Positions 3,756 through 19,852 of a stretch of 64,000 bases of DNA are shown piece after piece. Origin of the DNA: Candidatus Dormiibacterota bacterium (GTDB lineage Bacteria > Chloroflexota > Dormibacteria > Aeolococcales > Aeolococcaceae); the NCBI GenBank assembly GCA_036495095.1, contig DASXNK010000107.1, positions 11,042-75,041 of the forward strand. Direction: 5' to 3'. Below the pieces are notes generated by a model. The model did no database searches. It had not been told where the DNA came from and saw nothing but the letters and a program-made list of their open reading frames with translations. Numbering within the stretch: position 1 is the stretch's first letter; each line of letters starts with the position of its first letter. Made by a program: the position numbers and the translations under genes.

Positions 3756-4732
3756 AGCGCGCTCCCCGCGCCGGCGGGGGCGAGCGCCACCGCCGTGCCG
3801 CCGGTGTGCCAGAAGAGCACCGGCCCGCCGGCGCCGGCGGCGAGCAGCCGGGGGAGCACGCCGAGCGCCTTGGCGGTGAAGGCGGGGTCCAGGACCAGCC
3901 CCTCGTGGGCGGCGGCGAGGGAGGCGGCTCTCGCCCCCTCGATCGAGGCCTGCCCGTAGCCGGGCCCGCGGGCGTCGTGGACCTCCACCGCGGCGGCCGG
4001 CGGCGGCGGCACGCCGAGGAGCCGGGCGCCGGTGCCGGCGAGCTCCAGCACCCGCGCCGCGGTCTCCTCCACGGGGCGGCTCACCGCGGCGCCGGCCACC
4101 CGCAGCCGCCGGCCCGCCGCGGTGAGGCCGGCGAGCAGGCCCGCCTGGGTCACCCCCGAGCCGGTGGCCAGCAGCAGCAGCGCCGGCTCCACGCCGGCGG
4201 CGTCGAGCTGGTCGAGCGCCTCGGCCGCGGCGGCGGCGTAGCCGAGGACAGCCACGTCCCGGGCACCCCCCCGGGGGATCGCATAGGGACGGCGGCCGGC
4301 GGCGCGCAGCTCCGCGGCGGCGGCCTCCAGCCCGGCGTCGACGGACTCGCGGCGGGGGTCGCCGGTGAAGCGCACCGTGGCGCCGAAGCCGCGGGCGAGC
4401 ACCAGGTTGGGGTGGGGGATCGCCGGCTCGCCGCCGTACAGCACCAGGGTGCAGCCGAGCCCGGCGACCGCGGCCGCGGCGGCGGCTCCCTGGCACCAGC
4501 TGGAGGCGGGGCCGCCGCCGGTGAGGAGCACGTCGCAGCCGGTGGCGAGGGCATCGCCCACCAGGAACTCGAGCGACCGGGTCTTGTTGCCGGCGAGCGC
4601 GAAGCCGCAGAGGTCGTCGCGCTTGCACCAGAGCGGCGGCGCCCCGAGCACGCGCTCCAGCCGCTCGAGGCGCACCAGCGGGGTGGGGAGCAGCGCCAGG
4701 CGCAGCCGGGCGGCGGCGGTGGTCAGCGCCAC
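3752..4732 (-). CDS. PLP-dependent ACC deaminase / D-cysteine desulfhydrase / cysteate sulfo-lyase (CuyA) family enzyme
   Basis: Motif WCKRDDLCGFALAGNKTRSLEFLV matches the ACC-deaminase family lysine region. ~326 aa. GTG start overlaps the upstream lyase stop. Confidence 0.75.
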   Translation of the reverse strand: MALTTAAARLRLALLPTPLVRLERLERVLGAPPLWCKRDDLCGFALAGNKTRSLEFLVGDALATGCDVLLTGGGPASSWCQGAAAAAAVAGLGCTLVLYGGEPAIPHPNLVLARGFGATVRFTGDPRRESVDAGLEAAAAELRAAGRRPYAIPRGGARDVAVLGYAAAAAEALDQLDAAGVEPALLLLATGSGVTQAGLLAGLTAAGRRLRVAGAAVSRPVEETAARVLELAGTGARLLGVPPPPAAAVEVHDARGPGYGQASIEGARAASLAAAHEGLVLDPAFTAKALGVLPRLLAAGAGGPVLFWHTGGTAVALAPAGAGSAL

Positions 4733-6084
4733 GGGTCGGGCTCGGCGGCGAGGGCGGCGCGTCCCCGCCGCACCGCGGCGTCGACGATGGCCCCGGCGCT
4801 GCCCGCGCCGGCGGCGACCGGCGGGCCGCCACCGGCGTCGCCGAGGTCGACGTGGTCGCGGAGCGCCTCCTCCAGGCTCTCGCCGCGCTCCTGACCGGCC
4901 CGCAGCGCCGCCTGCAGCAGGCTCTGGGCGCGGTGCCTGCCGATCCGGGGGGCGAGCTCGGCGAGCAGCGCCTCGGAGGCCGCGTACCCACCGCCGGCGC
5001 CGAGGTTGGCCAGCATCCGTTCGCCGTCCACCTCCAGGCCGTCGAGCAGCCGCCGGGCCAGCGCCAGGGCGGCGCCGGTGAGCAGGCAGGCCTCGGGGAG
5101 GGCGATCCACTCCGCCTTCCAGGCGCGCCCGTCGCGCTCGTGCTCGCCGACCATTCCCTCGAGCAGGGTCGCCGCCTGCTGGCGAACCAGCCGGGCGAGG
5201 GTGCCGAGATGCTCCGCGGCCTCGGGATTGCGCTTGTGGGGCATGGTGATGCTGCCCACCGCACCCGCCGCGGCGGGCTCCCGCAGCTCGCCGATCTCGG
5301 GGCGCTGGAGCTGGTACACCTCGGTGCCGATCCGCGCCAGGGTGGCGGTGACCATCGCCAGCAGGTGGCCGAACTCGGCGACCCGGTCGCGGGCGGTGAG
5401 CCATGGCACCAGCGGGTCGGCGAGGCCGAGGCGGGCGCAGAAGCGCGCCCGCAGCTCGAGGCCGTTCTCGCCGAAGAAGGCGAGGGTGCCGACGCCGCCG
5501 CCGAGCTGGCCGGCGAGCCAGCGCGGCGCCCCCTCGGTGAGCCGCTCGCGGTGGCGCCGGACCTCGTCGGCCCAGGAGGCGGCCTTGAGGCCGAAGCTGA
5601 TCGGCGACCCCGGCTGGCCGTGGGTGCGGCCCGGCATCAGGGTGTCGCGGTGGCGCTCGGCGAGGTCGAGCAGAAGGCCCTCGACCGCACCCAGGTCCCG
5701 CCACACCACCCGTCCGACCCGGCGCATCGCCAGCGCTGTCCAGGTGTCGGTGAGGTCCTGCACGGTGGCCCCGTAGTAGACGTGCTCCGCCGCCTCGGCG
5801 GGCAGCAGCCGCCGCAGCGCCGCGATCAGCCCGAGGGTGGAGTGCGAGGTGCTCCGGGTGACCTCGGCGGCGAGGTCGAGGTCGACCAGCTCGACCCGGG
5901 CGGCGGCCGCGATCGCCTCCGCCGAGGCGGCGGGGATCAGGCCCAGCTCGGCCTGGGTGGCGGCGAGGGCGGCGAGGATGTCCAGCCACGACTGCAGCCG
6001 CGCCTCCTCGTCGAAGACGGCGCGCATCTCGTCGGTGCCCCACAGGTGGGCGTAGAGACGCGAGTCGCTCAGGCGGGCGCCCAT
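4723..6084 (-). CDS. Fumarate-lyase superfamily enzyme, adenylosuccinate lyase / 3-carboxymuconate cycloisomerase (PurB/PcaB)-like
   Basis: Signature GSITMPHKRNP, 454 aa. ATG start at 6084 overlaps the upstream gene stop. Confidence 0.75.
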   Translation of the reverse strand: MGARLSDSRLYAHLWGTDEMRAVFDEEARLQSWLDILAALAATQAELGLIPAASAEAIAAAARVELVDLDLAAEVTRSTSHSTLGLIAALRRLLPAEAAEHVYYGATVQDLTDTWTALAMRRVGRVVWRDLGAVEGLLLDLAERHRDTLMPGRTHGQPGSPISFGLKAASWADEVRRHRERLTEGAPRWLAGQLGGGVGTLAFFGENGLELRARFCARLGLADPLVPWLTARDRVAEFGHLLAMVTATLARIGTEVYQLQRPEIGELREPAAAGAVGSITMPHKRNPEAAEHLGTLARLVRQQAATLLEGMVGEHERDGRAWKAEWIALPEACLLTGAALALARRLLDGLEVDGERMLANLGAGGGYAASEALLAELAPRIGRHRAQSLLQAALRAGQERGESLEEALRDHVDLGDAGGGPPVAAGAGSAGAIVDAAVRRGRAALAAEPDPWR

Positions 6085-6947
6085 GCCGGCTCCGCGATCC
6101 GTGCGACCTCGCCCAGGCCCTCGCGGACCAGCTCCAGCGACGCTCCCCAGGGCACCGTGACCCGCCCCGGCGTCACCTCCAGGTGCTCCTCGAGCAGGCA
6201 GCACTTGGTCAGCACCGGCGCCGGCGCCGCCATCCGCCGCGGGCAGATGTCGATCCGCTCGGCGTCGGCGCCGTAGAACCAGTGGTGGATCTCGCGGGAG
6301 CGCTCGCAGCCGAGCAGCAGCCAGTCGCGGTGGGGAGGATGCTGATCGAGGTAGGCGACCTCCACGCCCTCGAGCACGATCCCCGAGCCCCGGCAGGGCA
6401 GCAGCCGGTCGCGGCCGTCGCCGCCGTTCGCTCCCAGCTCGCGGAGATCGACGAGGTGGGGCACCAGCTCGATGGGGGGCAGGTCGTCGGCCACGGCCAG
6501 CACCCGGCGGCACTGGTCGAACAGCTTGGGCGGCTCCGGCGGCACCACCTCGACGACGGTGATGCGCAGCGGCCGGGGGTCGAGGATGAAGTTCAGGTGC
6601 TCGTAGCGCCCGTGCACGACCACGCAGCGCACCCCGGGGGCGTGCCGCCCGGCGGCGGCGGCGAGCTGGGTGGGCACCGCGGTGTCGACCTCGGCCAGGT
6701 GGAGCAGCGCGCACTCGTGGGGGAGGGCGAGGATCTCCACCGCGGTGATCGGCGAGAAGAGCGGCTCCTCGGTGGCCCGGTCGACCCGCACCACCGCGGT
6801 CTGCTCGCCGTGGCGGGCGATGATGTAGCGGGTCCGCCGGTAGGAGTCGCGGCCGAGCAGGTGCTGCCGGAGCGACGCCGGGTCGAGGGGGCGGTCGAGC
6901 TCGGCGACGGAGACGTCGCGGTAGCGCCGGGGGACGAGGTTGCTCAT
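6069..6947 (-). CDS. Hypothetical protein, operon-embedded
   Basis: 292-aa ORF overlapped at both ends with flanking operon genes. No recognisable motif apart from a conserved-looking C-terminus (LTKCCLLEEHLEVTPGRVTVPWG). Confidence 0.5.
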   Translation of the reverse strand: MSNLVPRRYRDVSVAELDRPLDPASLRQHLLGRDSYRRTRYIIARHGEQTAVVRVDRATEEPLFSPITAVEILALPHECALLHLAEVDTAVPTQLAAAAGRHAPGVRCVVVHGRYEHLNFILDPRPLRITVVEVVPPEPPKLFDQCRRVLAVADDLPPIELVPHLVDLRELGANGGDGRDRLLPCRGSGIVLEGVEVAYLDQHPPHRDWLLLGCERSREIHHWFYGADAERIDICPRRMAAPAPVLTKCCLLEEHLEVTPGRVTVPWGASLELVREGLGEVARIAEPAWAPA

Positions 6948-7732
6948 GTCCCCGCGGCGGCGGCGACCTCACCCTCGCCGCAGCTCAGCTCGATGGTGTC
7001 GGCGCGCAGCCCCAGCCGCAGCGCCTCGAGGCCGAGCACCTCGGCGGGCACCACGTTGCCGAGGCCGGCGTCGGCGCCGAGCCGGCGGATGAACCACGCC
7101 TGCTGGTCCTTGCGGGGAGCCTCGAAGATCACCCGGTGGCGGGTCGCCCGGAGGAGCGCGTCCACCAGCTCGGCGCGGACCGTGCCGTCCGCCGAGTAGA
7201 GCCCGACGGTGCCGCTCTCGCGGCCCTCGGCGACCACCCAGGTGGCGCCGGCCTCGAGGTCGCCGGCGGCCTCCTCGGCCCAGGCGAAGGCGTGCACCGG
7301 GGCGTCCGGCTGCTTCGCCCCGACCTCGGCGAGCACCGTGAACCGGCGCGCGGCGCGCTCGATGAGGTCCCGCTTGGCGGCGAGCGGCAGCCGGCGGGTG
7401 CCGTTGGAGACCTCGACGCAGGGGAAGCCGGCCTCCTCCGCCCAGTCGAGCAGCCGCTCGGCGGCGCCCTGCACCCAGGCCACCTCGAGCAGGGTGCCGC
7501 CCACGCACGCCTCCACCGCGTGCTCCCGGAGAATGGCCACCCTGTCCGCCACCCGAGGATCGAGGTACGCCGTGCCCCAGCCGAGCTTCCAGACGTCGAC
7601 GTGGCCGGCGCACAGGTCGAGGAGCGCGGACATCTCCGGGAGCGGCATCCCGCGGTCGAGAACGTGGGTGATCCCCGCTCGCCGGGGCTTCGAGCTGCGC
7701 GAGGGGAGCTCGAGGAAATCGGGATGCGGCAT
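6944..7732 (-). CDS. comA: (2R)-phospho-3-sulfolactate synthase (ComA) family protein
   Basis: N-terminal SKPRRAGITHVLDRGMP matches the ComA KPRxxGLTxVxDKG pattern. ~262 aa. ATG start at 7732. Confidence 0.7.
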   Translation of the reverse strand: MPHPDFLELPSRSSKPRRAGITHVLDRGMPLPEMSALLDLCAGHVDVWKLGWGTAYLDPRVADRVAILREHAVEACVGGTLLEVAWVQGAAERLLDWAEEAGFPCVEVSNGTRRLPLAAKRDLIERAARRFTVLAEVGAKQPDAPVHAFAWAEEAAGDLEAGATWVVAEGRESGTVGLYSADGTVRAELVDALLRATRHRVIFEAPRKDQQAWFIRRLGADAGLGNVVPAEVLGLEALRLGLRADTIELSCGEGEVAAAAGT

Positions 7733-7762
7733 TTCTTCGATAGTAGATGCGCATTTCGTCCC

Positions 7763-8740
7763 GTGCAAGTTGGGCCGCCGGTGACCGAGCTCGACGCGGT
7801 GGTGCGGACCGTCCGCGAGGGGCCGGGACTGCGCGCCAAGGCAGCCCTCGCGCTGGTCAGCGACGTGTTCGGGCCCAGCGACTGGACCGGCGGTCCCGGC
7901 GACGACGCCGCCGTCGTCGACGCCGGCGGGGGCCGGGTGGTGGCCGGTGGCGAGGCGCTCTGGCCGCCCTTCGTGGCCGCCGACCCGCGGGGCGCGGGCA
8001 TCGCCGCGGTGGTCGCCAACGTCAACGACGTCTGCGCCATGGGGGCGCGGCCGCTCGCGATCCTCGACACCGTGATCGCCCCCGAGCCGGTGGCGCGCCT
8101 GGCCCTGGAGGGGATGCGCCACGCCGCCGCCCTCTACGGGGTGCCGGTGGTGGGCGGGCACCTGACCATCCGCGATGGTCCGCCGGCGATCTCCGCCTTC
8201 GGGCTCGGCGAGCTGCGCGGCCCGGTGCTCAGCTCCCGCCACGTCGCCCCCGGTCAGGCGCTGCTCCTCGCCTGCTGCCTGGAGGGGACGATGCGCGCCG
8301 ACTTCCCCTACTTCTCCTCCCTGGCGGAGCGGGGCGAGCGCCTCGCCGGGGACGTCCGGCTGCTCCCCGAGCTCGCCGAGGAGGGGATCTGCGTCGCCGC
8401 CCGCGACGTCAGCATGGCCGGGGTGCTGGGCTCGCTGGCGATGCTCCTCGAGCCCACCGCCGCCGGCGCCTGCGTCGACCTCGACGCCCTGCCCCGGCCC
8501 GCCGGGGTGCCGCTGACCAGCTGGGTGATGGCCTTTCCCGCCTACGGCTTCCTGCTCTGCGCCGACCCCGGTGCCGTCGAGGCCTGCCGGGCCCGGTTCG
8601 CCGCCCGCGGCCTCGCCTGCGAGGTGATCGCCACCGTCGACGGCGGCGGCGAGCTGCGGGTGCGTGGGGGAGGGGAGGAGCGGCGGGTGCTCGACCTCCG
8701 CAGCGAGCCGGTCACCGGGCTGCGGCTGAGGGCGGAGTGA
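7763..8740 (+). CDS. AIR synthase-related (PurM/HypE/ThiL superfamily) protein, sll0787-like
   Basis: PurM-like N- and C-domains (AAVVANVNDVCAMGARPLAILDTV ... GGHLTIRDG ... ARDVSMAGVLGSL). Divergent from comA by ~30 bp. GTG start chosen in frame. Confidence 0.65.
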   Translation: MQVGPPVTELDAVVRTVREGPGLRAKAALALVSDVFGPSDWTGGPGDDAAVVDAGGGRVVAGGEALWPPFVAADPRGAGIAAVVANVNDVCAMGARPLAILDTVIAPEPVARLALEGMRHAAALYGVPVVGGHLTIRDGPPAISAFGLGELRGPVLSSRHVAPGQALLLACCLEGTMRADFPYFSSLAERGERLAGDVRLLPELAEEGICVAARDVSMAGVLGSLAMLLEPTAAGACVDLDALPRPAGVPLTSWVMAFPAYGFLLCADPGAVEACRARFAARGLACEVIATVDGGGELRVRGGGEERRVLDLRSEPVTGLRLRAE

Positions 8741-9912
8741 TCCGCATCGGCGCCGGGGAGCGCCGGGCCCGGCTGGCGCGGCGCCACCACCTCGCGCCGG
8801 CCGCCCGCGCGTCCGGCCCGGTCGAGGTGGCCGCCGGCCTCGTCGCCCTCCACGCCACCGACCCGGCCACGGTGTTCCTCGCCGCCGCCGCGCGGATGCG
8901 CCTCCCCGAGACCGCGGCCGTCGAGCGGGCGCTCTACGAGGACCGCGTTCTGGTGCGGATGCTCGGGATGCGCCGGACCATGTTCGTGGTGCCCCGCGAC
9001 CTGGTGGGGGTGGTGCAGGCGTCGAGCACCCGGGCGATCGCGGCCCTGGAGCGGCGCCGGAGCCTGCAGCTGCTGGAGGGGGCGGGGATCGGCGGCGACC
9101 TCGCCGCCTGGCTCGCCGGGGTCGAGGAGGCCACCCTGGCCGCGCTCGCCGCCCGCGGCGAGGCGACCGGGGCGGAGCTGTCCGCGGACGTGCCCGGGCT
9201 GCGCACCCGGGTGCTGCTCTCCGAGGGCAAGCCCTACGAGAGCCTGCAGAACATCACCACCCGGGTGCTGACCCTGCTCGCCGCCGACGGGCGCATCGTC
9301 CGCGGCCGGCCCCGCGGCACCTGGATCTCCAGCCAGTACCGGTGGTCGCCGGTGGAGGCGTGGCTGCCCGGCGGGGTGGCGGAGTGGACCGCCGAGGCGG
9401 CCCGGGCCGAGCTGGTGCGCCGCTGGCTCGCCGCCTACGGCCCCGGCACCGAGGCCGACCTGCGCTGGTGGACGGGATGGACGGCGGCCCAGGTGCGCGC
9501 CGCCCTCGCCAGCTGCGGCGCGGTGGCCGTCGACCTCGACGGCGTCCCCGGCCTGGCGCTCCCCGGCGACCTCGAGCCCGAGCCGGCGGCCGAGCCGTGG
9601 GTGGGGCTGCTCCCCGCCCTCGACCCCACGGTGATGGGCTGGGCCGGGCGCGACTGGTACCTGGGCGAGCACGGCCCGGCCCTCTTCGACCGCTCCGGCA
9701 ACGCCGGTCCCACGGTGTGGTGGGACGGCCGGATCGTCGGGGGCTGGGGTCAGACCCCGGCTGGCGGCGTCGCCGTCGAGCTCCTGGAGGACGTCGGGGC
9801 GGAGCCGGCGGTGGCGGTGGAGGAGGCGGCCGCGACGCTGGGCGGCTGGCTCGGCGGGGTCAGGGTCACCCCCCGCTTCCGGACGCCGCTGGAGCGGCGG
9901 CTCAGCTCCTGA
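8737..9912 (+). CDS. Winged-helix DNA-binding protein of the AlkZ/YcaQ (HTH_42) DNA-glycosylase family
   Basis: ERALYEDRVLVRMLGMRRTMFVV and the overall pattern match the AlkZ-like family. GTG start overlaps the upstream stop (GTGA). Confidence 0.65.
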   Translation: MIRIGAGERRARLARRHHLAPAARASGPVEVAAGLVALHATDPATVFLAAAARMRLPETAAVERALYEDRVLVRMLGMRRTMFVVPRDLVGVVQASSTRAIAALERRRSLQLLEGAGIGGDLAAWLAGVEEATLAALAARGEATGAELSADVPGLRTRVLLSEGKPYESLQNITTRVLTLLAADGRIVRGRPRGTWISSQYRWSPVEAWLPGGVAEWTAEAARAELVRRWLAAYGPGTEADLRWWTGWTAAQVRAALASCGAVAVDLDGVPGLALPGDLEPEPAAEPWVGLLPALDPTVMGWAGRDWYLGEHGPALFDRSGNAGPTVWWDGRIVGGWGQTPAGGVAVELLEDVGAEPAVAVEEAAATLGGWLGGVRVTPRFRTPLERRLSS

Positions 9913-10678
9913 GGGTCGCCTCGACGCCGCGGACGTCCCCGTCCTCGTCGACGAGCACGCCGGGGTCCGCGTAGCCGAGGCGGGCGAGGTCGCCGGCGAG
10001 CGCGCCCGCCTGGGCACCGCCGAGCTCGAGCAGGAGCGCGCCGCCTCGCCGGAGGAAGCGGACGCTGCCGGCGACGACGCGGCGGAGGACCTCGGTGCCG
10101 TCGGGGCCGCCGTCGTAGGCCAGCGCCGACTCGAAGGCGAAGGTGTCGCGCTGCAGCAGCGGCAGCTCCGGGGTGGGCACGTAGGGCACGACCGCCACGA
10201 CGACGTCGACGCGTCCCTCGAGGGTGGGCGGCAGCGGGGCGAAGAGGTCGCCGCGGTATGCCTCGACGCCGTTCGCCGCCGCGCAGGCGACGGCACGCTC
10301 GTCGAGGTCGGAGCCCACCACCCGCGCCCCGGGGTGGCGGGTGGCCAGCACCCGGGCGATCGCCCCCGACCCGGTGCAGAGGTCGATCGCCACGCCGTTC
10401 GCGGGCAGGCGCTCGGCGGCCCGGCACGCGAGCCGCTCGCTCTGCCAGCGGGGGACGTAGACCCCGGGGTCGACGCGGACCCCCACACCGCAGAACACGA
10501 CGCCGCCGGTGATCCAGGCGAGCGGCTCGCCGGTGAGCCGGCGCGCGACCAGCGACTCGAGGAGGCCGGCGTCGCCGGCGGCGCACGCCAGCAGCTCGCC
10601 GGCCTCCTCCGCCGCCGCGATGAAGCCGGCGACCGCCAGCCTGGCGGTGAGCACCTCGAGGTCGTTGGCCATCCGCAC
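9902..10678 (-). CDS. Class I SAM-dependent methyltransferase, HemK/PrmC-like
   Basis: Motif IDLCTGSGAIARVLA (SAM-binding GxGxG) and HemK-like N-terminal region. 258 aa. Confidence 0.7.
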   Translation of the reverse strand: MRMANDLEVLTARLAVAGFIAAAEEAGELLACAAGDAGLLESLVARRLTGEPLAWITGGVVFCGVGVRVDPGVYVPRWQSERLACRAAERLPANGVAIDLCTGSGAIARVLATRHPGARVVGSDLDERAVACAAANGVEAYRGDLFAPLPPTLEGRVDVVVAVVPYVPTPELPLLQRDTFAFESALAYDGGPDGTEVLRRVVAGSVRFLRRGGALLLELGGAQAGALAGDLARLGYADPGVLVDEDGDVRGVEATLRS

Positions 10679-10761
10679 CAGTACACCACGGGCACACCGC
10701 CGTCACCGTCTCGTTACCCGGTGCGGAGTAGTGGCCGCCGTATACTCGGCGCCGGATAGTC

Positions 10762-11439
10762 ATGAACGAGCCACGCCGCGACATCACCAACCCCCTCGCG
10801 CTGGCGGTCCTCGCGCTGCTCTTCGAGCGGCCGATGCACCCCTACGAGATCGCCTCGCTGATGCGCGAGCGCGCCATCCACGAGGCGATCAAGCTCAACT
10901 ACGGCTCGCTGTACACCGTCGTCGACCTGCTCCTCCGCCACGGGCTGATCGAGGCCCAGAGCACCGCTCGCGACGGGCGGCGCCCGGAGCGCACCGTGTA
11001 CCGGCTGACCGACGCCGGCCGTGCCAGGTTCCGGGGCTGGCTGCGGGAGCTGCTCCGCACCCCCGCCAAGGAGTACACCCAGTTCGCCGCCGGGCTCGCC
11101 TTCGCCGCCGCGGTGGGCATCGACGAGCTCGGCTCGCTGCTCGAGGAGCGTGCCGGCCGCATCGAGGCCGAGCTCGCCGAGGCGCGAGGGATCTTTGCGG
11201 ACCTCACCGCGAGGGGCCTGCCCCGGCTCTTCACGCTCGAGGGCGAGCACGCGATGGTGCTCCGCACCGCCGAGCTGGAGTGGGTCCGCGGCGTGATCGC
11301 CGCCATCGCCGGCGGCCGCCTCGCCCTCCCCACCGCGGAGGAGATGGCCGTCCTCCACCAGAACTTCCCCACCGCCGCGCCGATGCCGGCGCAGAGCGAC
11401 GGATCCGCACCTTCACCCCGAGAGGAGACGCCCCTGTGA
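10762..11439 (+). CDS. PadR-family transcriptional regulator
   Basis: N-terminal winged helix LALAVLALLFERPMHPYEIASLM ... GSLYTVVDLLLRHGLIE is typical of PadR. Confidence 0.8.
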   Translation: MNEPRRDITNPLALAVLALLFERPMHPYEIASLMRERAIHEAIKLNYGSLYTVVDLLLRHGLIEAQSTARDGRRPERTVYRLTDAGRARFRGWLRELLRTPAKEYTQFAAGLAFAAAVGIDELGSLLEERAGRIEAELAEARGIFADLTARGLPRLFTLEGEHAMVLRTAELEWVRGVIAAIAGGRLALPTAEEMAVLHQNFPTAAPMPAQSDGSAPSPREETPL

Positions 11440-12383
11440 TCGAGACCAATGGGCTGCGCCGCAGCTTCACGACCCGGCGGGGCGAGGTCGAGGCCGTCGC
11501 CGGCATCGACCTCCGCGTCGACGCCGGCGAGATCGTCGGCTTCCTCGGCCCCAACGGGGCGGGGAAGACCACCACCCTGCGGATGCTGACCACCCTGCTC
11601 GTGCCCAGCGGCGGCGAGGCCACCGTGGCCGGCTGCGACCTGCTCCGCGAGCCCCGTCAGGTGCGCGAGCGGATCGGCTACGTCGCCCAGGGCGGCTCCA
11701 CCGATCCCACCGTCACCGGCCGCCACGAGATGGTGCTCCAGGCCCGCCTCTACGGGATGGACCGCGCCACCGCCGAGGCGCGCGCCGCCGAGGTGCTCGG
11801 CGCCCTCGACCTCACCGCCTGCGCCGACCGCAAGGGCGGCACCTACTCGGGCGGCCAGCGCCGCCGCCTCGACCTCGGGCTGGGCCTGGTCCACAAGCCG
11901 CAGCTGCTCTTCCTCGACGAGCCCACCACCGGGCTCGACCCGCAGAGCCGCGCCCACCTCTGGGACGAGATCCGCGGCCTCCGCGAGCGGGGCACCACGG
12001 TGTTCATCACCACCCACTACCTCGACGAGGCCGACGCCCTCTGCGACCGCCTGGCGATCATCGACCACGGCCGCATCGTCGCCGAGGGCACCGCCGAGGA
12101 GCTGAAGCGGGATGTCGCCGGCGACGTGGTCACCGTGGGCGTCCTCGAGGACGTCGACGCGGCGCTGCGGCTGCTCCAGCACCAGCCCTTCGTGCGCGAG
12201 GCCACCGTCGACGAGGGCACCGTGCGCCTCTACGTGGAGCGCGGCGAGGCCGCCATGCCGCTGATCCTCCGCCTCCTCGACGGCGGCGGGCTGACCCTGC
12301 AGACCATCTCGCTGGCGCGGCCGTCGCTCGACGACGTGTTCCTCCGCCAGACCGGCCGCTCGCTCCGCGACGAGGCCGCATAG
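11436..12383 (+). CDS. ABC transporter ATP-binding protein (DrrA-like)
   Basis: Walker A GPNGAGKTT, signature YSGGQRRRL, Walker B LLFLDEPTTGLD. Start overlaps the PadR stop (GTGA). Confidence 0.85.
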   Translation: MIETNGLRRSFTTRRGEVEAVAGIDLRVDAGEIVGFLGPNGAGKTTTLRMLTTLLVPSGGEATVAGCDLLREPRQVRERIGYVAQGGSTDPTVTGRHEMVLQARLYGMDRATAEARAAEVLGALDLTACADRKGGTYSGGQRRRLDLGLGLVHKPQLLFLDEPTTGLDPQSRAHLWDEIRGLRERGTTVFITTHYLDEADALCDRLAIIDHGRIVAEGTAEELKRDVAGDVVTVGVLEDVDAALRLLQHQPFVREATVDEGTVRLYVERGEAAMPLILRLLDGGGLTLQTISLARPSLDDVFLRQTGRSLRDEAA

Positions 12384-12389
12384 GAGACC

Positions 12390-13154
12390 GTGATGAGAGT
12401 CCTCCGCGACAGCTGGCTGGTCTTCCAGCGGAGCATGGGCCAGACCCTCCGAAACCCGGTGTGGGTCGTGGTCGGGCTCATGCAGCCGATCTACTACCTG
12501 TTCCTCTTCGGCCCGGTGTTGAAGAAGGTCGCCGAGTCGTCGCCCGACTACGGCGGCAACGCCTACGACATCTTCGTCCCCGCGCTGCTCGTGCAGATGG
12601 CGCTCTTCGGCTGCGTCTTCGTCGGCTTCGGCCTCATCGCCGAGCTGCGCTACGGGGTCATCGAGCGGATGCGCGTGACCCCGATGAGCCGGCTGTCGAT
12701 GCTCCTCGGCCGGGCTGGCCGCGACATCGCCGTGCTGCTCTTCCAGTCGGCGCTGCTGGTGGTGATGTCGATCCCCTTCGGCCTGCACATCACCGCGACC
12801 TCGATCGCCATCATCAGCGTCCTCCTGGTGCTCATCGGGCTGGGGATGGCCTGCCTCTCCTACGGCCTCGCGCTCAAGCTGCGCAGCGAGGACGCGATGG
12901 CGCCGCTGCTCAATGCCATCTTCCTGCCGATCATGCTGCTCAGCGGCATGCTGCTTCCTCTGAGCCTGGCTCCCGCCTGGTTGCAGGGGGTGGGCCACGC
13001 CAACCCGTTCTACTACGCGGTCGAGGCGGCCCGGAAGGCGTTCCAGACCCCGGTCGCGGGCGGAACGGTCCTGGGTGGCATCGCGGTCGCCGCCGCTCTC
13101 GCCGCCGTCACCATCACCTGGGCGGCCCGCTCCTTCGGGCGGTCGGTGGCCTAA
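12390..13154 (+). CDS. ABC-2 type transporter permease (DrrB-like)
   Basis: 254-aa polytopic hydrophobic protein immediately downstream of the ATPase. Confidence 0.8.
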   Translation: MMRVLRDSWLVFQRSMGQTLRNPVWVVVGLMQPIYYLFLFGPVLKKVAESSPDYGGNAYDIFVPALLVQMALFGCVFVGFGLIAELRYGVIERMRVTPMSRLSMLLGRAGRDIAVLLFQSALLVVMSIPFGLHITATSIAIISVLLVLIGLGMACLSYGLALKLRSEDAMAPLLNAIFLPIMLLSGMLLPLSLAPAWLQGVGHANPFYYAVEAARKAFQTPVAGGTVLGGIAVAAALAAVTITWAARSFGRSVA

Positions 13155-13648
13155 ACCGGTCCCAGCGCGATCACCATGTCCTGGTGCGGCCTGCCGAGAT
13201 AGTCGGCAGGCCCACCCAGGGCGGTCCAGCCGAGGCGGCGGAAGAAGCGCACGTTGGCCACCTGCACGTGGGCGCGCATCACCCGGCCGCCGCGCTCGCC
13301 GGCGGTGCGCACCGCGTAGCGCACCAGCGGTTCGGCGACGTGGCGGGCCCGGTAGGCGGGCAGCACGCTGAGCCGGTCGCCCACCCAGACGCCCTCGCCG
13401 TCGAGGTCGAACAGCCGCACCGTCCCCGCCACCTCGCCGTCGCAGAAGCCGAGCACGTGGAGGGTCGTCGGGTCGGCGTCGCGGTCGTCGAGGTCGGTGA
13501 TCGCGAAGATCCCCTGCTCGTCGACGAAGACGCGCTCGCGGATGCGCAGGTGCACCTCGAGCTCGCCCGGCGAGGCCACCGGCCGGCAGTGGACGGTGGG
13601 CGGGCTAGTGGAGAGGGCGAAGGGGGATGCGCTCGAGGTCGTCACCAC
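13151..13648 (-). CDS. GNAT family N-acetyltransferase (MSMEG_0567/Sll0786-like)
   Basis: GNAT core RIRERVFVDEQ ... GTVRL. Sits immediately downstream of the radical SAM gene; the annotated start overlaps the rSAM 3' end, so the true start may be internal. Confidence 0.65.
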   Translation of the reverse strand: MVTTSSASPFALSTSPPTVHCRPVASPGELEVHLRIRERVFVDEQGIFAITDLDDRDADPTTLHVLGFCDGEVAGTVRLFDLDGEGVWVGDRLSVLPAYRARHVAEPLVRYAVRTAGERGGRVMRAHVQVANVRFFRRLGWTALGGPADYLGRPHQDMVIALGPV

Positions 13649-14741
13649 CGCTGCTCCGTTCCATGACTCCCATCACCGAGCACGCCTGGCAGCGGGCGCA
13701 GCCGGCGCGCACCGTCCCGGAGCTGATGCCGCGGGCCTGGAGGTGCGGCACCACCCGCCGGTAGATCGCGTCCATCCGCTCCGCCGGCGGCGGCGAGCAC
13801 GCCTCCATCAGGCTGCCCGGCACCGGCCGCAGCGGCACCACGAAGGGATAGACGCCGAGGTCGATGGCGCGCAGGCAGCCCTGCACGGTGACCTCGGGGT
13901 CCTCGCCCATGCCGATGATCACGTAGGTCGAGACCTGGCCGCGGCCGAAGAGCTCGACCGCCCGCTCCCAGGCGGCGAAGTAGCCCTCGATGCCGGTGCG
14001 CGCCTTCGCGGGGGCGATGCGGGCGAGCACCGCGGGGTCGAAGGACTCGACGTGGATGCCGACCGAGTCGACGCCGGCGTCGTGGACCCGGTCGAGCGCC
14101 GCGAGGTCGCCCGGGGGCTCGAACTGCGCCTCGATGGGCAGGCCGCTCGCCTCCTTGATCGCCGCCGCGCAGCGCGCCAGGTAGAGGGCGCCGCGGTCGG
14201 GGCCGTGGGTGCTGCCGGTGGTGAGGGTGACGTCGACCGCGCCGTCGAGGTCGCGCGCGGCCACCGCCACCGCGGCGAGGTGCTCGGGTCGCTTCACCCG
14301 CACCGTGCTCCCCGCCTGCAGGGTCAGCTCGATGCCGCAGAAGTGGCACTGGTCCTCGGTGTCCCAGTACGCGCAGGTCTGGATCACCGTGCTCGCCAGC
14401 GAGTCGAGGTGGAGGAGGGCGATCTTCCAGTAGGGGATGCCGTCGTCGGTGGTGAGGTCGTAGTACCGGGGACGCGCCGGCGCCGCCGCCGAGGCGAGGC
14501 GGACGCCCCCGCGGTAGATGCCCCAGCCCTCGTCCTCGCGTCGCATGGTGTACGGCGACCCGGCGACGTACGCGGCCGTCACCGGGACGGTCACCGGCAC
14601 CCCCTCGACGTGGATCATCCCCGCGTCGGAGGGGCCCGCGCCGCCACGCCGGGCCTCGACCGGCCCCTCCAGCCGCACGCCGCGGCTCTGCAGCTCGGTG
14701 AGCAGCCGTCCCAGGTCGGGCGTCACCGGAACAGTGGCCAT
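13605..14741 (-). CDS. Radical SAM protein (MSMEG_0568-like)
   Basis: Cys cluster CAYWDTEDQCHFC plus a C-terminal CARCQAC motif. ATG at 14741 preceded by a GGAGG-type RBS. ~378 aa. Confidence 0.65.
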   Translation of the reverse strand: MATVPVTPDLGRLLTELQSRGVRLEGPVEARRGGAGPSDAGMIHVEGVPVTVPVTAAYVAGSPYTMRREDEGWGIYRGGVRLASAAAPARPRYYDLTTDDGIPYWKIALLHLDSLASTVIQTCAYWDTEDQCHFCGIELTLQAGSTVRVKRPEHLAAVAVAARDLDGAVDVTLTTGSTHGPDRGALYLARCAAAIKEASGLPIEAQFEPPGDLAALDRVHDAGVDSVGIHVESFDPAVLARIAPAKARTGIEGYFAAWERAVELFGRGQVSTYVIIGMGEDPEVTVQGCLRAIDLGVYPFVVPLRPVPGSLMEACSPPPAERMDAIYRRVVPHLQARGISSGTVRAGCARCQACSVMGVMERSSGGDDLERIPLRPLH

Positions 14742-14857
14742 GCGCGCCTCCTCGCGACCGGACAATTCCACAAACTTTGGAAGACGACCGTTCACCAAAG
14801 GAAAACAGAATCTTGCCCGCGGCTTCGCACCGTGTCAAGGGTGCCAGGGCCCCGGCG

Positions 14858-15481
14858 TCACTCCTGCTCGAGATACCGGCGCAGCTCCTGGGTGGCCTTC
14901 GTCCAGGACTCGGCGTCGGCGAAGGTGCGGGCGTCCTCGACGGTGGTGCCGGGTGCGTGGTCGCCGCTGCCGGGGTCGAGACGCAGCCGCTGGAGGCCGT
15001 ACTCGGGGCGCCCGGTGGCCGGGTCCGGGTCGATGTACAGGTGGAGGGCCTCGCCGCTGCGGACGTGCATCTCCAGGCGGCGGTGGCCGGTGCGCTCGGG
15101 GCGGCCGCTCTCGTGCAGGACCACCCAGGCACCGCCCCGGTCGCGCGCCTCGGAGATCAGCCGCAGCGCACGCAGCCGTTCCAGCGCACCCAGGATCTCC
15201 CGGTGCCGGATGCCGAAGGCGGCGCCGGCGATCAGCCCCAGGTCGAGCTCCTCGGCGGCCATCCCGGTGCGCGCCAGGAGGCCGTCGAGGGTCTCCGGCG
15301 CCCGGGGGAAGGCGGCGGCCAGCTCCTCCACCGCGGTGTGCGCGCGGAGCTCGTCGGCGAACGCGCGGACCAGCAGCCCGGCGCGCTCGTAGAGGTCCGG
15401 ACGGACCATCACGACGGGGTAGAGGCGGGCCTCGTCCTCCCGCCACCGCCGCACCAGGGCGGCGATCTCCTGTTCATTCAT
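14858..15481 (-). CDS. Hypothetical protein (possible Nit1C-cluster accessory protein)
   Basis: 207-aa ORF with high GC3 and no recognisable motif. Lies upstream of the rSAM/GNAT pair. Confidence 0.45.
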   Translation of the reverse strand: MNEQEIAALVRRWREDEARLYPVVMVRPDLYERAGLLVRAFADELRAHTAVEELAAAFPRAPETLDGLLARTGMAAEELDLGLIAGAAFGIRHREILGALERLRALRLISEARDRGGAWVVLHESGRPERTGHRRLEMHVRSGEALHLYIDPDPATGRPEYGLQRLRLDPGSGDHAPGTTVEDARTFADAESWTKATQELRRYLEQE

Positions 15482-15587
15482 CCGAGTACCCGGCGTGTAC
15501 TATGTTCAACGCCTTGTCCTCTATCATGCACACGACCGGAAGGGGGGCGCCGAGCGCGCCGGGTCCCATCCGTGGCCCAGGCCCAGC

Positions 15588-16541
15588 ATGAGGCACACGG
15601 TCGTGCTGGCGCTGGGCGGCAACGCCCTCACCCCTCCGGACCAGTCAGGGGCCTGGGAGCAGCAGCGCGCCAACGCCGTGCCCCTCGCCCGCGCCGCCGC
15701 CGCCCTTCTCCACGCCGGCTGGCGGGTGGCGATCAGCCACGGCAACGGCCCCCAGGTCGGCGCTCTCGCGCTGCAGCAGGAGGCGGGCGCCTCCGGCGTC
15801 GCCGCCCAGCCGCTCCACGCGGTGGGGGCGATGACCCAGGGCCAGATCGGCAGCCTGCTGGCGATGGCGCTCGCAGAGGTCTGCGACGGCGGCGTCTCGG
15901 TGGTCTCCGTGGTCACCCACATGGTGGTGGCCGAGCCGGCGCCGGGCGCGGTGCCGACCAAGCCGATCGGCCCCTTCTACCCGCGGGAGCGGGCGCTGGA
16001 GCTGGCCGCGGAGCGGGGCTGGGCGGTGGTCGACGACGCCGGCCGGGGCTGGCGGCGGGTGGTCGACTCCCCCGAGCCGCTGGAGATCGTCGAGGCGCGG
16101 GCGGTCCGCGACCTCGTCGATGGCGGCCACCTGGTGATCGCGTGCGGCGGCGGCGGCATCCCGGTGACCCGCCGCGACGGCCGCCTCGACGGGGTCGAGG
16201 CGGTGATCGACAAGGACCTCGCCGCCTGGCGGCTGGCGGTGGAGCTGGGGGCGGGCGTGCTCGCGCTGGTCACCGGGGTGGACTGCGTCAGCCTCGACCA
16301 CGGCACCCCTCGCGAGCGGGCGATCACCGAGATGTCCCTGGCCGAGTCGGAGGCACTCGACAGCGCCGGGCACTTCCCCCCGGGGAGCATGGGTCCCAAG
16401 GTGGCCGCCGCCCGCCGCTTCGTCCGCGACGGCGGCGAGCTCGCGGTGATCACCTCGGCGGAGCACGTGCTCGAGGCGGTCGAGGGACGGCACGGCACCC
16501 GCATCGTCGCCGGCACGGGCACCGTGAGGGCGTCGGCTTGA
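15588..16541 (+). CDS. arcC: Carbamate kinase
   Basis: ALGGNAL, ISHGNGPQVG, KPIGPFY, ACGGGGIPV, EAVIDKDLA and GSMGPKV motifs all match the carbamate kinase family. Confidence 0.8.
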   Translation: MRHTVVLALGGNALTPPDQSGAWEQQRANAVPLARAAAALLHAGWRVAISHGNGPQVGALALQQEAGASGVAAQPLHAVGAMTQGQIGSLLAMALAEVCDGGVSVVSVVTHMVVAEPAPGAVPTKPIGPFYPRERALELAAERGWAVVDDAGRGWRRVVDSPEPLEIVEARAVRDLVDGGHLVIACGGGGIPVTRRDGRLDGVEAVIDKDLAAWRLAVELGAGVLALVTGVDCVSLDHGTPRERAITEMSLAESEALDSAGHFPPGSMGPKVAAARRFVRDGGELAVITSAEHVLEAVEGRHGTRIVAGTGTVRASA

Positions 16542-17734
16542 GCTCCGCGCCGGTGGCGCTGCTCACCTACTCGACCAAGCCGCGGGGCGGGGTGGTGCAC
16601 ACCGTCGAGCTCGCCGAGGCGCTCCACGACGCCGGCCGCCCGGTGCACATCGTCACCCTGGGCGACCCCGACCAGGGCTTCTACCGCCCGGTGCGGGCGC
16701 CCCACACCATCCTCCCCGCGCCCGCGTCCGCCGCCACCCTCGAGGAGCGGGTGACCGCGGCCGTCGACGCCCTGGCGGAGGGCCTGGCCCCGCTGGCGGG
16801 ACGCTTCCGGATCCTTCACGCGCAGGACTGCATCGCCGCCCGGGCGGCGGCGCGGGTGCGCGACCAGGGGGCTCGAGCGCTGGTGGTGCGCACCGTCCAC
16901 CACGTCGACGACTTCACCACCCCCGCGCTGATCGACTGCCAGCGGCGGGCCATCCTCGAGCCCGATCACGTGCTGGTGGTCAGCGAGCAGTGGCGCCGGC
17001 TGCTCGGCGAGGACCCCGGGGTCGAGGCGGAGGTGGTCCCCAACGGGGTCGACGCCGAGCGCTTCTCCGGCCCGGGCGCCGTGGACCCGGCGGAGTTGCG
17101 CGCCCGGGTGGGGGCCGAGGGCCGCTTCCTCTTCCTCACGGTCGGGGGGATCGAGCCGCGCAAGGGCAGCGCCGAGCTGCTCGAGGCGATGGCGGCGCTG
17201 TGCGGCGAGGCGGGGCCATCGCCGGTGCTGGCGGTGCTCGGCGGCCACTCGTTCCAGGACCACTCCGCCTACCGCGAGGCGGCGCTGGCGCGGGCCACCG
17301 ACCGGGGCCTCCGGCTGGGGACCGACGTGGTCGTGCTCGGCACCGTGCCCGACGCCGAGCTGGTGGCGTGGTATCGGGCCGCCGACGCGTTCGTGCTGCC
17401 CTCGACCCGGGAGGGGTGGGGGCTGGCGGTGCTCGAGGCGCTGGCCGCGGAGCGGCCGGTGGTGGCCAGCGACATCGAGGTGTTCCGCAGCTATCTGACC
17501 GACGGCGAGACCGCCCTGCTCGCGCCCGCCGGCGACGCCGGGGCGATCGCCGCGGCGATGCGGCGGCTGGTCGCCGACCGCGGGCTGCGCGAGCGCCTCG
17601 CCGGCGCCGGGCCCGCGGTGGCGGCGCGCTACAGCTGGGCGGCGAGCGCTCGTCGGCACGGCGAGATCTATGACCGCCTGGCGCCGGTGGCGCCCCCCGC
17701 CCGCTGGGCGGGACGCTTGGCCGCGCGCCGGTAG
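16538..17734 (+). CDS. GT4 family glycosyltransferase (possible MSMEG_0565-like)
   Basis: C-terminal GT-B motif VLPSTREGWGLAVLEALAAERPVVASD. TTG/GTG start overlaps the arcC stop. Confidence 0.75.
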   Translation: MSSAPVALLTYSTKPRGGVVHTVELAEALHDAGRPVHIVTLGDPDQGFYRPVRAPHTILPAPASAATLEERVTAAVDALAEGLAPLAGRFRILHAQDCIAARAAARVRDQGARALVVRTVHHVDDFTTPALIDCQRRAILEPDHVLVVSEQWRRLLGEDPGVEAEVVPNGVDAERFSGPGAVDPAELRARVGAEGRFLFLTVGGIEPRKGSAELLEAMAALCGEAGPSPVLAVLGGHSFQDHSAYREAALARATDRGLRLGTDVVVLGTVPDAELVAWYRAADAFVLPSTREGWGLAVLEALAAERPVVASDIEVFRSYLTDGETALLAPAGDAGAIAAAMRRLVADRGLRERLAGAGPAVAARYSWAASARRHGEIYDRLAPVAPPARWAGRLAARR

Positions 17735-18238: not shown

Positions 18239-19852
18239 GTGGTGCCCGTAGCCGACGCCGTGGTCGTGGGCGCCGGCCCCAACGGGCTGGTGGCGGCGGC
18301 GCTGCTCGCTCGGGCGGGCTGGGACGTCGCCGTCCTGGAGCGCGCCACCGAGCCCGGGGGCGCGGTGCGCAGCGGCGAGGTCACCCTGCCCGGCTACGTC
18401 CACGATCTCTACTCCGCGTTCTACCCGATGCTCTGGGCCTCGCCGGTGCTCGCCGAGCTGGGGCTCGACCGGCGGGTCGAGTGGGCCGGCTTCGAGGTGC
18501 CCGCCGGCGCCGCGGTCGCTCCCGGACGGGCGGCGGTGATCCACCGCGACCCCGAGACCACGGCCTCGCGGCTGGGGGGCGTCGACGCCGGGGGCTGGCG
18601 CCGGCTGATGCGCTGGTGGGAGGCGGCGGGACGGCCGCTGCTCGAGACCCTGCTCGCACCGCTGCCGCCGCTGCGGCCGGCGGCGGGGCTGGTGCGGCGC
18701 ACCGGGGTGGCCGGGGCCCTGGGCTGCGTCCGGCTGATGCTCGAGCCGATGGAGTCGGTGGCCCGCCGGCTGCTGGTCAGCGACAGCGCACGGGCGCTGC
18801 TCGCCTGCGGGGTCACCCACGGCGACGTCCCCGTCGACGCCTGCGGCAGCACCCCGGCGGCGCTGATGCTCGCGGTCACCGGGCAGGCGCTGGGGATGCC
18901 CATCCCCACCGGCGGCGCCGGCCGGCTCACCGCGGCGCTCGTGGACGTGCTGACCGAGGCGGGTGGGCGGCTGCGCACCGCCACCGAGGCGCGCCGGGTG
19001 CTCGTCGAGCGGGGCCGCGCCGCCGGGGTGGAGACCGCCGCCGGCGAGCGCTGGCGGGCGCGGCGCGCGGTGGTCGCCGACCTCGACGCCGGCCGGCTGC
19101 TCCTCGACCTGGTCGGCGCCGAGCGGCTGCCCGCCTCGGTGCCGGCGCGGCTGGCCCGCCGTCGCCACGGCAGCGGCATGTTCAAGCTCGACCTCGCCCT
19201 CGCCGGCACCGCGCCCTGGGCGGCGGAGGAGCTGCGCGACTGCGGCGTGGTCCACCTCTGCGGCGACCTCGACACCACCGCGGAGGCGCAGCACCAGGTG
19301 GGCCGCGGCCTGCTCCCCGCCCGCCCCCAGCTGATCTGCGGGCAGCAGTCGCTCGCCGACGCGAGCCGCGCGCCCGCCGGCGGCGCCACCCTCTGGGTCG
19401 AGTGCCACGTGCCCGGGGCCCCGCGCGGGGACGCCGCCGGCGAGATCGGCGGCGAGGGCTGGGCGGCGCTGCGCGACGGCTTCACCGAGCGGGTGCTCGC
19501 CCGGCTCGAGGAGCACGCCCCCGGGCTCCGGTCGCGGCTGCTCGGGATGGCGGTGCGCTCGCCCGCCGACCTCGAGGCGGAGAACCCCAACCTGGTCGGC
19601 GGCGACGTCGCCGGCGGCTCGTACGCGCTCGATCAGCAGGCGGTCTTCCGGCCGCTGCCGGGGTGGTCGCGGTACCGGATGCCGCTCGCCGGTCTCTACC
19701 TCTGCTCCGGCTCCACCCATCCCGGCGGCGGGGTGCACGGCATGGGTGGCCGCAACTGCGCCCGCCGCGTGCTCGCCGACGCCGGCGCCGGCCGGGTGCT
19801 GGCCCGGCTCGGACGGCGACGGGATCGGGGCGAGCCCGCCGCCGAGCTCTGA
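18239..19852 (+). CDS. NAD(P)/FAD-dependent oxidoreductase, phytoene-desaturase (CrtI)-like
   Basis: N-terminal dinucleotide-binding motif [20 protein letters not shown]. 537 aa. GTG start. Confidence 0.75.

Follow-up and report, generated by a model that had tools for sequence, protein, structure and literature searches.

Linkage of a bacterial-type coenzyme M operon with Nit1C-type genes in a Candidatus Dormiibacterota contig

Introduction

Nit1C gene clusters, which were reportedly defined in 2005, raise the question of what role their non-nitrilase genes play, and a second question is raised by coenzyme M (2-mercaptoethanesulfonate) genes in bacteria that do not oxidize alkenes. The two questions are tied together by a locus in a Candidatus Dormiibacterota genome (GenBank assembly GCA_036495095.1, contig DASXNK010000107.1, positions 11,042–75,041 of the forward strand), analyzed here as a stretch of 64,000 nucleotides that is referred to as the window. 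Homologs of the complete five-gene bacterial-type coenzyme M operon, in the order xcbB-A-D-E-C, occupy positions 2256–7732 on the minus strand, directly upstream of and divergent from a gene encoding a PurM-like protein of the Nit1C type. The same linkage of xcb and Nit1C-type genes recurs across three phyla, in approximately 20 independent loci that belong to Chloroflexota/Dormibacterota, to Actinomycetota, and to a plasmid of Methylocystis. A sequence-only reading of the window had described a rearranged Nit1C variant; the family membership stood, but the proteins form a separate clade with conserved partners of their own, and the full xcbBADEC operon had gone unnoticed.

Gene map and family assignment

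The G+C content of the window is approximately 74%, and raw lists of open reading frames (ORFs) were swamped by spurious frames. Genes were called by third-position GC (GC3) and start-codon context, and the resulting map agrees gene by gene with an independent gene call on contig L028, the proteins of which are approximately 95% identical. Family assignments were made by NCBIfam and Pfam profile scans of the called genes against curated cut-offs. The related loci, L001–L028, are genome-collection and environmental contigs, among which L001 and L028 are relatives of the window at approximately 95% identity. The conserved locus spans approximately 32–17734 and extends beyond the left edge of the window, which cuts it by interrupting a nitrile hydratase operon after the beta subunit gene. 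An Rfam scan of the entire window returned no match.

The coenzyme M operon

The five genes of the operon are as follows, in the order of transcription.

6944–7732, minus strand: XcbB/ComA phosphosulfolactate synthase homolog (TIGR03849, 235.9 bits; archaeal equivalog cut-off 280)
6069–6947, minus strand: XcbA/DUF7714, Fe-S reductase of the coenzyme M pathway (NF052538, 341 bits, above 150; PF24830, 310.8 bits)
4723–6084, minus strand: XcbD, 3-sulfopropionylcysteine synthase type (NF052536, 626.4 bits, above the cut-off of 600)
3752–4732, minus strand: XcbE-like pyridoxal phosphate enzyme (NF052537, 283 bits, below the cut-off of 450)
2256–3755, minus strand: XcbC-like lyase of the aspartase/fumarase superfamily (NF052535, 439 bits, below the cut-off of 575)

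Successive genes overlap by 4–16 nucleotides. The XcbC-like protein, which presumably converts phosphosulfolactate to sulfoacrylate, shares the SSVLMPQKRNPY loop with Xanthobacter autotrophicus Py2 and is 39% identical to the Py2 protein and 47% identical to that of Nocardioides JS614. The XcbE-like protein (47–48% identity to Py2 and JS614) keeps the GNK(T/I)R lysine motif, XcbD (58% identity to JS614) keeps the signature loop GSITMPHKRNPE, and XcbA has five invariant cysteine columns in common with Py2 XcbA. The ComA homolog, the L028 ortholog of which is matched by PF02679, is 52% identical to the JS614 protein, with a range of 42–52% across Py2 and JS614. Overall, the window Xcb proteins are 44–58% identical to the JS614 set, while JS614 and the biochemically characterized Py2 set are only 36–45% identical to each other, and the gene order B-A-D-E-C is the same as in JS614, which degrades vinyl chloride and ethene. 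In bacteria, the pathway to coenzyme M has been worked out in Xanthobacter (PMC9457059). By homology with it, the most likely product of the window xcb genes is coenzyme M or a closely similar sulfonate thiol. A sequence search of XcbD against the PDB retrieved only generic lyases.

An alternative frame at 6969–7754 on the minus strand (261 amino acids) has no family matches and was rejected in favor of the GC3-consistent frame at 6944–7732, which is that of ComA/XcbB. A TACTAT hexamer stands 5–7 nucleotides upstream of the xcbB start codon, which suggests that the predicted transcript is leaderless.

The known xcbA–E operons of X. autotrophicus Py2, Nocardioides JS614, and Mycolicibacterium chubuense NBB4 have all five genes, the catalytic loops, and the XcbA cysteines in common with the window operon. 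The shared gene order and the identity to JS614 would suit a role of the operon in alkene or epoxide metabolism, with coenzyme M provided as it is in Xanthobacter, Mycolicibacterium, and JS614 and with the other genes of the locus being incidental. However, the window operon is linked to Nit1C-type genes and not to alkene monooxygenase, epoxyalkane:CoM transferase (EaCoMT), or 2-KPCC, and no EaCoMT or 2-KPCC homologs were found in the window or the related loci. Alkene-type xcb operons, in turn, carry no Nit1C genes and have entirely different neighbors, and a role in alkene metabolism is accordingly considered very improbable here.

Nit1C-family proteins of the window

Three proteins of the locus belong to families associated with Nit1C clusters, and a fourth, the PurM-like protein, has such a family as its best match.

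7781–8740 (alternative start 7763), plus strand: PurM-superfamily protein of the sll0787/NitF type (best model TIGR04049, 267.2 bits, below 321.3)
13151–13648, minus strand: GNAT of the MSMEG_0567/Sll0786 (NitE) family (TIGR04045, 100.4 bits, above 68.45)
13605–14798, minus strand: radical S-adenosylmethionine (SAM) protein of the MSMEG_0568 (NitD) family (TIGR04043, 396.1 bits, above 303.7)
16538–17734, plus strand: GT4 glycosyltransferase of the MSMEG_0565 family (TIGR04047, 378.9 bits, above 259.85)

The sequence-only reading had placed the adjacent GNAT and radical SAM proteins in the MSMEG_0567 and MSMEG_0568 families and had regarded the glycosyltransferase as Nit1C-associated, and the scores above the curated cut-offs bear out all three assignments. 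Its assignment of the PurM-like protein to the sll0787 type holds in that TIGR04049 is the best match, but the score lies under the cut-off and the protein falls in a separate clade.

The true start of the radical SAM gene is probably near 14741. Its product has a variant C142-x8-C151-x2-C154 motif in place of CX3CX2C, and a C-terminal C367xxC370xxC373 motif suggests a putative auxiliary cluster; the LipS2 lipoyl synthase model matches the protein weakly (34.5 bits), and a sequence search against the PDB gave no match. The PurM-like protein matches PF00586 and PF02769 and retains the DX4GAXP ATP motif as D89VCAMGARP. In the glycosyltransferase, the EX7E motif corresponds to E292–E300.

In neighbor-joining trees of the radical SAM and PurM-like proteins, two clades were resolved. 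The window falls in a clade linked to carbamate kinase and xcb genes, and the other clade is proteobacterial and nitrilase-linked and includes Methylocystis. Proteins of the window clade are 41–45% (radical SAM) and 34–38% (PurM-like) identical to the canonical ones.

The Nit1C, MSMEG_0565–0572 (gpr), and sll0783–0787 clusters have in common with the present locus the NitD, NitE, and NitF homologs, an optional MSMEG_0565-type glycosyltransferase, and the position of the radical SAM gene before the GNAT gene; the GNAT gene of the window lies directly downstream of the radical SAM gene, both on the minus strand, which is the canonical Nit1C order. NitB (TIGR04044) is also shared by the actinobacterial and Methylocystis versions of the locus. 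The agreement in gene order ends there. The canonical operon is colinear, NitB-C-D-E-F-(glycosyltransferase)-G-H, whereas the PurM-like gene of the window is on the opposite strand and the glycosyltransferase gene belongs to a separate carbamate kinase operon. Conversely, the canonical cluster is without the carbamate kinase, AllF/AllG-like proteins, 207-amino-acid protein, OsmC, and coenzyme A (CoA)-disulfide-reductase-like enzyme of the window-type locus.

The window lacks nitrilase, NitG, and NitH. No homolog of the Nit6803/sll0784-type nitrilase (TIGR04048), of NitG (TIGR04042), or of the NitH flavoprotein (TIGR04046) was detected in the 64 kb by tblastn (E ≤ 1e-3; three canonical nitrilases as queries in the case of the nitrilase) or by NCBIfam scans of the called genes, in agreement with the earlier claim that the nitrilase is absent. 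NitB likewise had no match in the window, and its gene may lie to the left. The ORF at 18239–19852, previously put forward as a flavin oxidoreductase candidate of the cluster, proved instead to be a CrtO/CrtI-type flavin adenine dinucleotide-binding flavoprotein of the amine-oxidase fold, unrelated to NitH and outside the MSMEG_0569 family. It is an indel: in the 95%-identical L001, the nearest relative, the ORF is missing and the flanking genes for a membrane protein and a HAD protein are 73 bp apart.

Recurrence of the linkage

A genome-collection search with the PurM-like protein yielded 12 loci. The relatives are 83–94% identical in Chloroflexota and Dormibacterota metagenome-assembled genomes and 53–59% identical in Actinomycetota, where the carriers are Jiangellaceae, Actinophytocola, Terrabacter sp. 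SO27, Pseudonocardia, Nocardioides daejeonensis MJ31, and Acidimicrobiales. Wherever the flank was long enough, the xcb genes were divergent from the PurM-like gene, with the radical SAM/GNAT pair, carbamate kinase, and glycosyltransferase nearby. Environmental contigs were sampled separately through the radical SAM protein or XcbA, and all of them showed the same linkage according to precomputed Pfam labels.

In the typical arrangement, the GT4 glycosyltransferase, AllF-like protein, and carbamate kinase are encoded on one strand, and the 207-amino-acid protein, Amidohydro_2, radical SAM protein, and GNAT are encoded on the other, converging on the PurM-like gene. These are followed by ComA, DUF7714, Lyase_1, PALP, Lyase_1, OsmC, AllG, sometimes AllH, a DsrE-like NitB, an 86-amino-acid protein, and Pyr_redox_2, together with a helix-turn-helix (HTH)-cupin regulator. 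The Pyr_redox_2 member of this conserved set is a CoA-disulfide-reductase-like flavoprotein, which lies outside the window.

In the methanotroph Methylocystis iwaonis, the extended set is found on a plasmid and there includes a Nit6803-family nitrilase. The genes for an FAD-oxidoreductase, NitB, DUF1116/AllG, the MSMEG_0565-type glycosyltransferase, an AllF-like protein, a homolog of the 207-amino-acid protein, a cupin regulator, Pnap_2097, the PurM-like protein, GNAT, radical SAM protein, and nitrilase are divergent from OsmC-ComA-XcbA-D-E-C. The xcb linkage is thus present in both clades of the radical SAM and PurM-like trees, with different gene orders. This is hard to explain without a functional connection, and since the gene order varies between lineages while the gene set persists, it argues for selection on the linkage.

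These data also bear on the simpler possibility of a stand-alone, rearranged, nitrilase-less Nit1C cluster for nitrogen starvation, next to which the xcb operon would be an unrelated neighbor. Three proteins of the window do pass the TIGR04043, TIGR04045, and TIGR04047 cut-offs, and canonical clusters do occur without xcb genes. On the other hand, xcb linkage was seen in every examined locus of the radical SAM/PurM-like clade, which is separate from the canonical one, and again in the distant Methylocystis in another order. A chance neighborhood is hence regarded as improbable.

The nearest XcbA homologs, taken as the best 120 of 2247 scored matches (E ≤ 1e-10) and at least 56% identical, come mostly from soil and sediment metagenomes. 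The genomic context was sampled for five XcbA homologs, and all five were in a Nit1C-type and not an alkene setting, in a sample biased to relatives of the window; with the same bias in mind, the Nit1C-type setting may be one in which the bacterial coenzyme M pathway commonly occurs in nature. All of the protein families concerned are known, but the literature searched contains no description of their conserved combination, and no paper in it connects nitrilase, radical SAM, and Nit1C with either coenzyme M or phosphosulfolactate synthase. Experiments are feasible in the cultured carriers N. daejeonensis MJ31, Terrabacter sp. SO27, and M. iwaonis SS37A-Re.

The NitB proteins of actinobacterial loci score 205 bits against TIGR04044, compared with a cut-off of 110. 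NitB (MSMEG_0572/Sll0783, the nitrogen starvation response protein family) also matches the sulfur-relay model DsrE/DsrF of Pfam (L013:20068–20559, L024:5077–5565, and L017:5556–6038), and the actinobacterial members reach the gathering score (23.4–26.7 bits vs 22.7). This similarity may point to chemistry of sulfur or persulfide as a general feature of Nit1C clusters.

Conserved partners with possible roles in carbon–nitrogen and thiol metabolism

Four further genes of the window belong to the locus.

15588–16541 (alternative start 15495, less likely), plus strand: carbamate kinase (NF009007, 267.7 bits, marginally above 266)
32–697, minus strand: nitrile hydratase beta subunit (TIGR03888, 194.8 bits, above 152.2)
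728–1120, plus strand: OsmC-family peroxiredoxin-like protein (OsmC/Ohr models)
14858–15481, minus strand: cluster-specific protein of 207 amino acids, unk207 (no Pfam or NCBIfam match)

The carbamate kinase scores 328 bits against TIGR00746, below the cut-off of 358. Its stop codon overlaps the TTG start of the glycosyltransferase gene as TTGA, and the unit of carbamate kinase, AllF-like protein where present, and glycosyltransferase is kept in approximately 15 related loci. The coupling of kinase and glycosyltransferase, which had been read from the window alone, is thereby confirmed, and the carbamate kinase belongs to a conserved unit.

Oxamic transcarbamylase converts a carbamoyl compound and phosphate to carbamoyl phosphate. 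AllF is a relative of the succinyl-CoA synthetase alpha subunit, and enzymes of this type phosphorolyse thioesters. In Escherichia coli, AllFGH is the oxamic transcarbamylase and YbcF (AllK) is the catabolic carbamate kinase (PMC11326118, PMC9843812). The related loci resemble this system in that the carbamate kinase gene shares an operon with genes for AllF-like and AllG-like proteins and, in some cases, an AllH-like protein, but allantoin and ureidoglycolate genes are missing, and in the window lineage the carbamate kinase is directly operonic with the glycosyltransferase. The window itself contains no AllF, AllG, or AllH subunit gene; AllG is located just past the left edge in the 95%-identical contig L028, and neither AllF nor AllH was seen in the window lineage.

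The presence of a nitrile hydratase beta subunit gene at 32–697 had been noted correctly, and the gene proves to be part of an operon embedded in the conserved locus, between AllG and OsmC, in the window lineage. To the left of the window start, L028 encodes the nitrile hydratase alpha subunit, an accessory protein, AllG, the HTH-cupin regulator, and Pyr_redox_2, with which L005 agrees (L028:16262–20879; L005:44–3088); the alpha subunit scores 298 bits against TIGR01323, compared with a cut-off of 250. Among the variants of the locus, a nitrilase is carried by Methylocystis and by the canonical clusters, nitrile hydratase by the window lineage, and Amidohydro_2 instead by Actinomycetota. Because the variants carry either nitrilase or nitrile hydratase, a nitrile or amide step may be a constant theme, which lends some weight to the earlier mention of nitrile hydratase.

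OsmC homologs are located inside or beside the cluster in L001, L002, L005–L008, L010, L013/14, L019, L022, and L026. The 207-amino-acid protein has approximately 55 homolog clusters, all labeled hypothetical, and an ortholog stands at the same position in approximately 15 loci, including that of Methylocystis. Its AlphaFold2 model (pLDDT 92.3) shows a helical domain followed by a beta-sheet, and a Foldseek search of the model against the PDB gave no match with an E-value below 0.08; the predicted structure may represent a new fold. The possibility that this protein or the conserved 86-amino-acid protein is a diverged NitB or NitG was rejected, as neither BLASTP nor hhalign revealed a relation.

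The divergent intergenic regions 7733–7780 and 15482–15587 contain conspicuous AT-rich elements with the pattern (G)TTTAnnAT(A/C)G, and these recur across phyla in the same intergenic regions of L013, L015, L022–L024, L026, and L027. When a shared operator was sought in the divergent intergenic regions, only AT-rich elements of the TANNNT type were found. The elements are best read as candidate −10 boxes of leaderless transcripts, or they could be an operator of the conserved HTH-cupin regulator.

Possible role of coenzyme M in the locus

Nitrogen starvation induces the canonical Nit1C cluster, without which cyanide is not assimilated (PMC11049912). Cyanide is nevertheless a poor substrate for the nitrilase of the cluster, and trans-alpha,beta-unsaturated nitriles are the best ones (PMC7815647). 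The M. smegmatis cluster confers resistance to peroxide (PMC6039565). In the reading tentatively preferred here, to which we give somewhat less than an even chance, coenzyme M acts as thiol partner in the processing of carbon–nitrogen units, in a pathway that also handles redox stress. XcbB, C, D, E, and A would make coenzyme M, which would serve as the thiol partner of Nit1C-type machinery acting on a nitrile, thiocyanate, or carbamoyl unit. A nitrile-type intermediate would be hydrated or hydrolyzed by nitrile hydratase in the window lineage, by nitrilase elsewhere, and possibly by Amidohydro_2 in Actinomycetota. The carbamoyl group would then be passed to phosphate by the succinyl-CoA-synthetase-like AllF/AllG, a step that in the window lineage would depend on AllG alone, and the carbamate kinase would convert the carbamoyl phosphate to ATP, NH3, and CO2. 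OsmC, the DsrE-like NitB, and the CoA-disulfide-reductase-like enzyme would keep the thiol pool cycling.

A more specific and bolder version, which must be called unlikely, proposes that C1-N units (cyanide, cyanate, or nitrile-derived) are carried as thiocyanato-CoM or S-carbamoyl-CoM, hydrated by nitrile hydratase or a nitrilase, and phosphorolysed by AllF/AllG to carbamoyl phosphate, from which carbamate kinase would yield ATP and NH3. Coenzyme M would then be both the missing thiol partner of Nit1C and a widespread cofactor in soil Actinomycetota, Dormibacterota/Chloroflexota, and some methanotrophs. So far, it is not known outside methanogens, their archaeal relatives, and a small number of alkene-oxidizing bacteria.

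Several observations weigh against the role proposed for coenzyme M. We infer coenzyme M production from homology at every locus of this type, and XcbC, XcbE, and ComA score under their curated equivalog cut-offs; the carbamoyl-thiol chemistry is likewise something that we infer. The Dormibacterota-type contigs L023 and L024 retain only ComA, XcbD, and XcbA near the PurM-like gene, so coenzyme M may not be made in every case and the sulfonate pathway may end differently in some lineages. Canonical Nit1C clusters on plasmids of Komagataeibacter, Klebsiella, and Sagittula have the textbook gene order and no xcb genes. In the window lineage, AllF and Amidohydro_2 are missing at the syntenic positions, between carbamate kinase and glycosyltransferase and before the radical SAM gene, respectively, and Methylocystis is without carbamate kinase. 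Given these absences, one chain of enzymes cannot account for all of the variants. In L023 and L024, an AMP-binding enzyme is encoded in place of XcbE and XcbC.

The glycosyltransferase, OsmC, and reductase genes invite another explanation, in which the locus makes a new low-molecular-weight thiol by the logic of mycothiol and bacillithiol synthesis, and this thiol acts as a redox buffer together with the OsmC peroxidase and the CoA-disulfide-reductase-like enzyme. The GT4 enzyme would glycosylate a sulfonated hydroxy acid or coenzyme M intermediate, the amidohydrolase would deacetylate the product, the PurM-like protein would ligate or cyclize it with ATP, and GNAT would acylate it. The models that rank next to TIGR04047 for the glycosyltransferase are indeed MshA (95.8 bits) and BshA (67 bits), GNAT, Amidohydro_2, and the ATP-using PurM-like enzyme are co-conserved, and OsmC and Pyr_redox_2 are kept in most loci. 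The MSMEG_0565–0572 cluster of M. smegmatis confers peroxide resistance and a raised NADPH/NADP ratio (PMC6039565). Beside the GNAT and radical SAM genes, the Pseudonocardia locus (L009:3304–5109) carries a full-length glmS paralog (glutamine-fructose-6-phosphate transaminase, 725 bits), which hints that the glycosyltransferase uses a hexosamine donor.

The mycothiol and bacillithiol systems have a MshA/BshA-related GT4, a GNAT, a thiol peroxidase-like protein, and a disulfide reductase in common with the present locus, as well as a metal-dependent amidohydrolase in the case of Actinomycetota. However, the locus has neither a homolog of the MshC/BshC-type cysteine ligase nor an LmbE-type deacetylase, and the resemblance is confined to the logic. 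The window lineage has no Amidohydro_2 gene, and many canonical Nit1C clusters are without a glycosyltransferase. Moreover, the new thiol would leave the carbamate kinase, AllF/AllG-like proteins, nitrilase, and nitrile hydratase unexplained. This explanation is the main rival but is given a somewhat lower probability, and the carbon–nitrogen pathway with coenzyme M as its thiol partner is retained as the preferred reading.

A five-gene insertion in the window lineage

Five genes (8737–13154, 4.4 kb) separate the PurM-like gene from the GNAT gene in the window.

8737–9912, plus strand: AlkZ-like glycosylase, AZL2 type (PF06224, 222.5 bits)
9902–10678, minus strand: HemK/PrmC-like methyltransferase (family match)
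10762–11439, plus strand: PadR (family match)
11436–12383, plus strand: DrrA (family match)
12390–13154, plus strand: DrrB (family match)

The block occurs only in the window lineage, namely, in L001/L028 and, without the methyltransferase, in L005. It is not found between the PurM-like and GNAT genes in L006, L010–L016, L022–L024, and L026, and in the actinobacterial and environmental versions the two genes converge within a few bases of each other. The sequence-only reading had taken the locus for a dispersed Nit1C cluster interrupted by resistance genes. The intervening genes are real, but they represent a lineage-specific insertion rather than dispersal of the cluster, and the resistance label is uninformative on the product, as the AlkZ-like protein is of the AZL2 type.

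A biosynthetic cluster for a DNA-damaging natural product, with the AlkZ-like protein and DrrAB as self-resistance, would account for the presence of AlkZ-like and DrrA/DrrB genes inside the locus and for the overlap of the AlkZ-like start with the PurM-like stop. Yet the motif of the AlkZ-like protein, L-H-A-T-D, conforms to the AZL2-type H-Phi-(S/T)-(D/E) and not to (Q/H)-Phi-Q. In Streptomyces, genes of the AZL2 type occur in single copy, and none was seen closer than 20 kb to a biosynthetic cluster (PMC9040887). The block is, furthermore, missing from all actinobacterial and Methylocystis versions of the locus, and we give a genotoxin cluster hardly any credence. Because of the AZL2 motif and the confinement to the window lineage, the block is best read as an unrelated lineage-specific insertion and not as self-resistance to a cluster product.

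Other features of the window

One regulatory gene at the left end of the conserved locus is confined to few relatives.

1560–2270, plus strand: winged-helix regulator, Trans_reg_C (OmpR/PhoB-type C-terminal matches; PF00486 on the L028 ortholog)

This regulator is lineage-specific and was found only in L001, L002, and L005. To the right of the locus, an (R)-enoyl-CoA hydratase-like gene is followed by a gene for a CoA-transferase resembling 2-methylfumaryl-CoA isomerase (29423–31745; TIGR04253, 586.6 bits, below 725), a pair that recalls the mesaconyl-CoA chemistry of the 3-hydroxypropionate bi-cycle or itaconate pathways. Two tandem genes at 35918–42739 encode RND-type efflux permeases of approximately 1050–1060 amino acids each. 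At 21358–24107, a gene for a flavin mononucleotide-dependent L-lactate dehydrogenase-like protein is divergent from one for an LctP-family lactate permease, and the two look like an ordinary lactate-utilization pair just outside the cluster.

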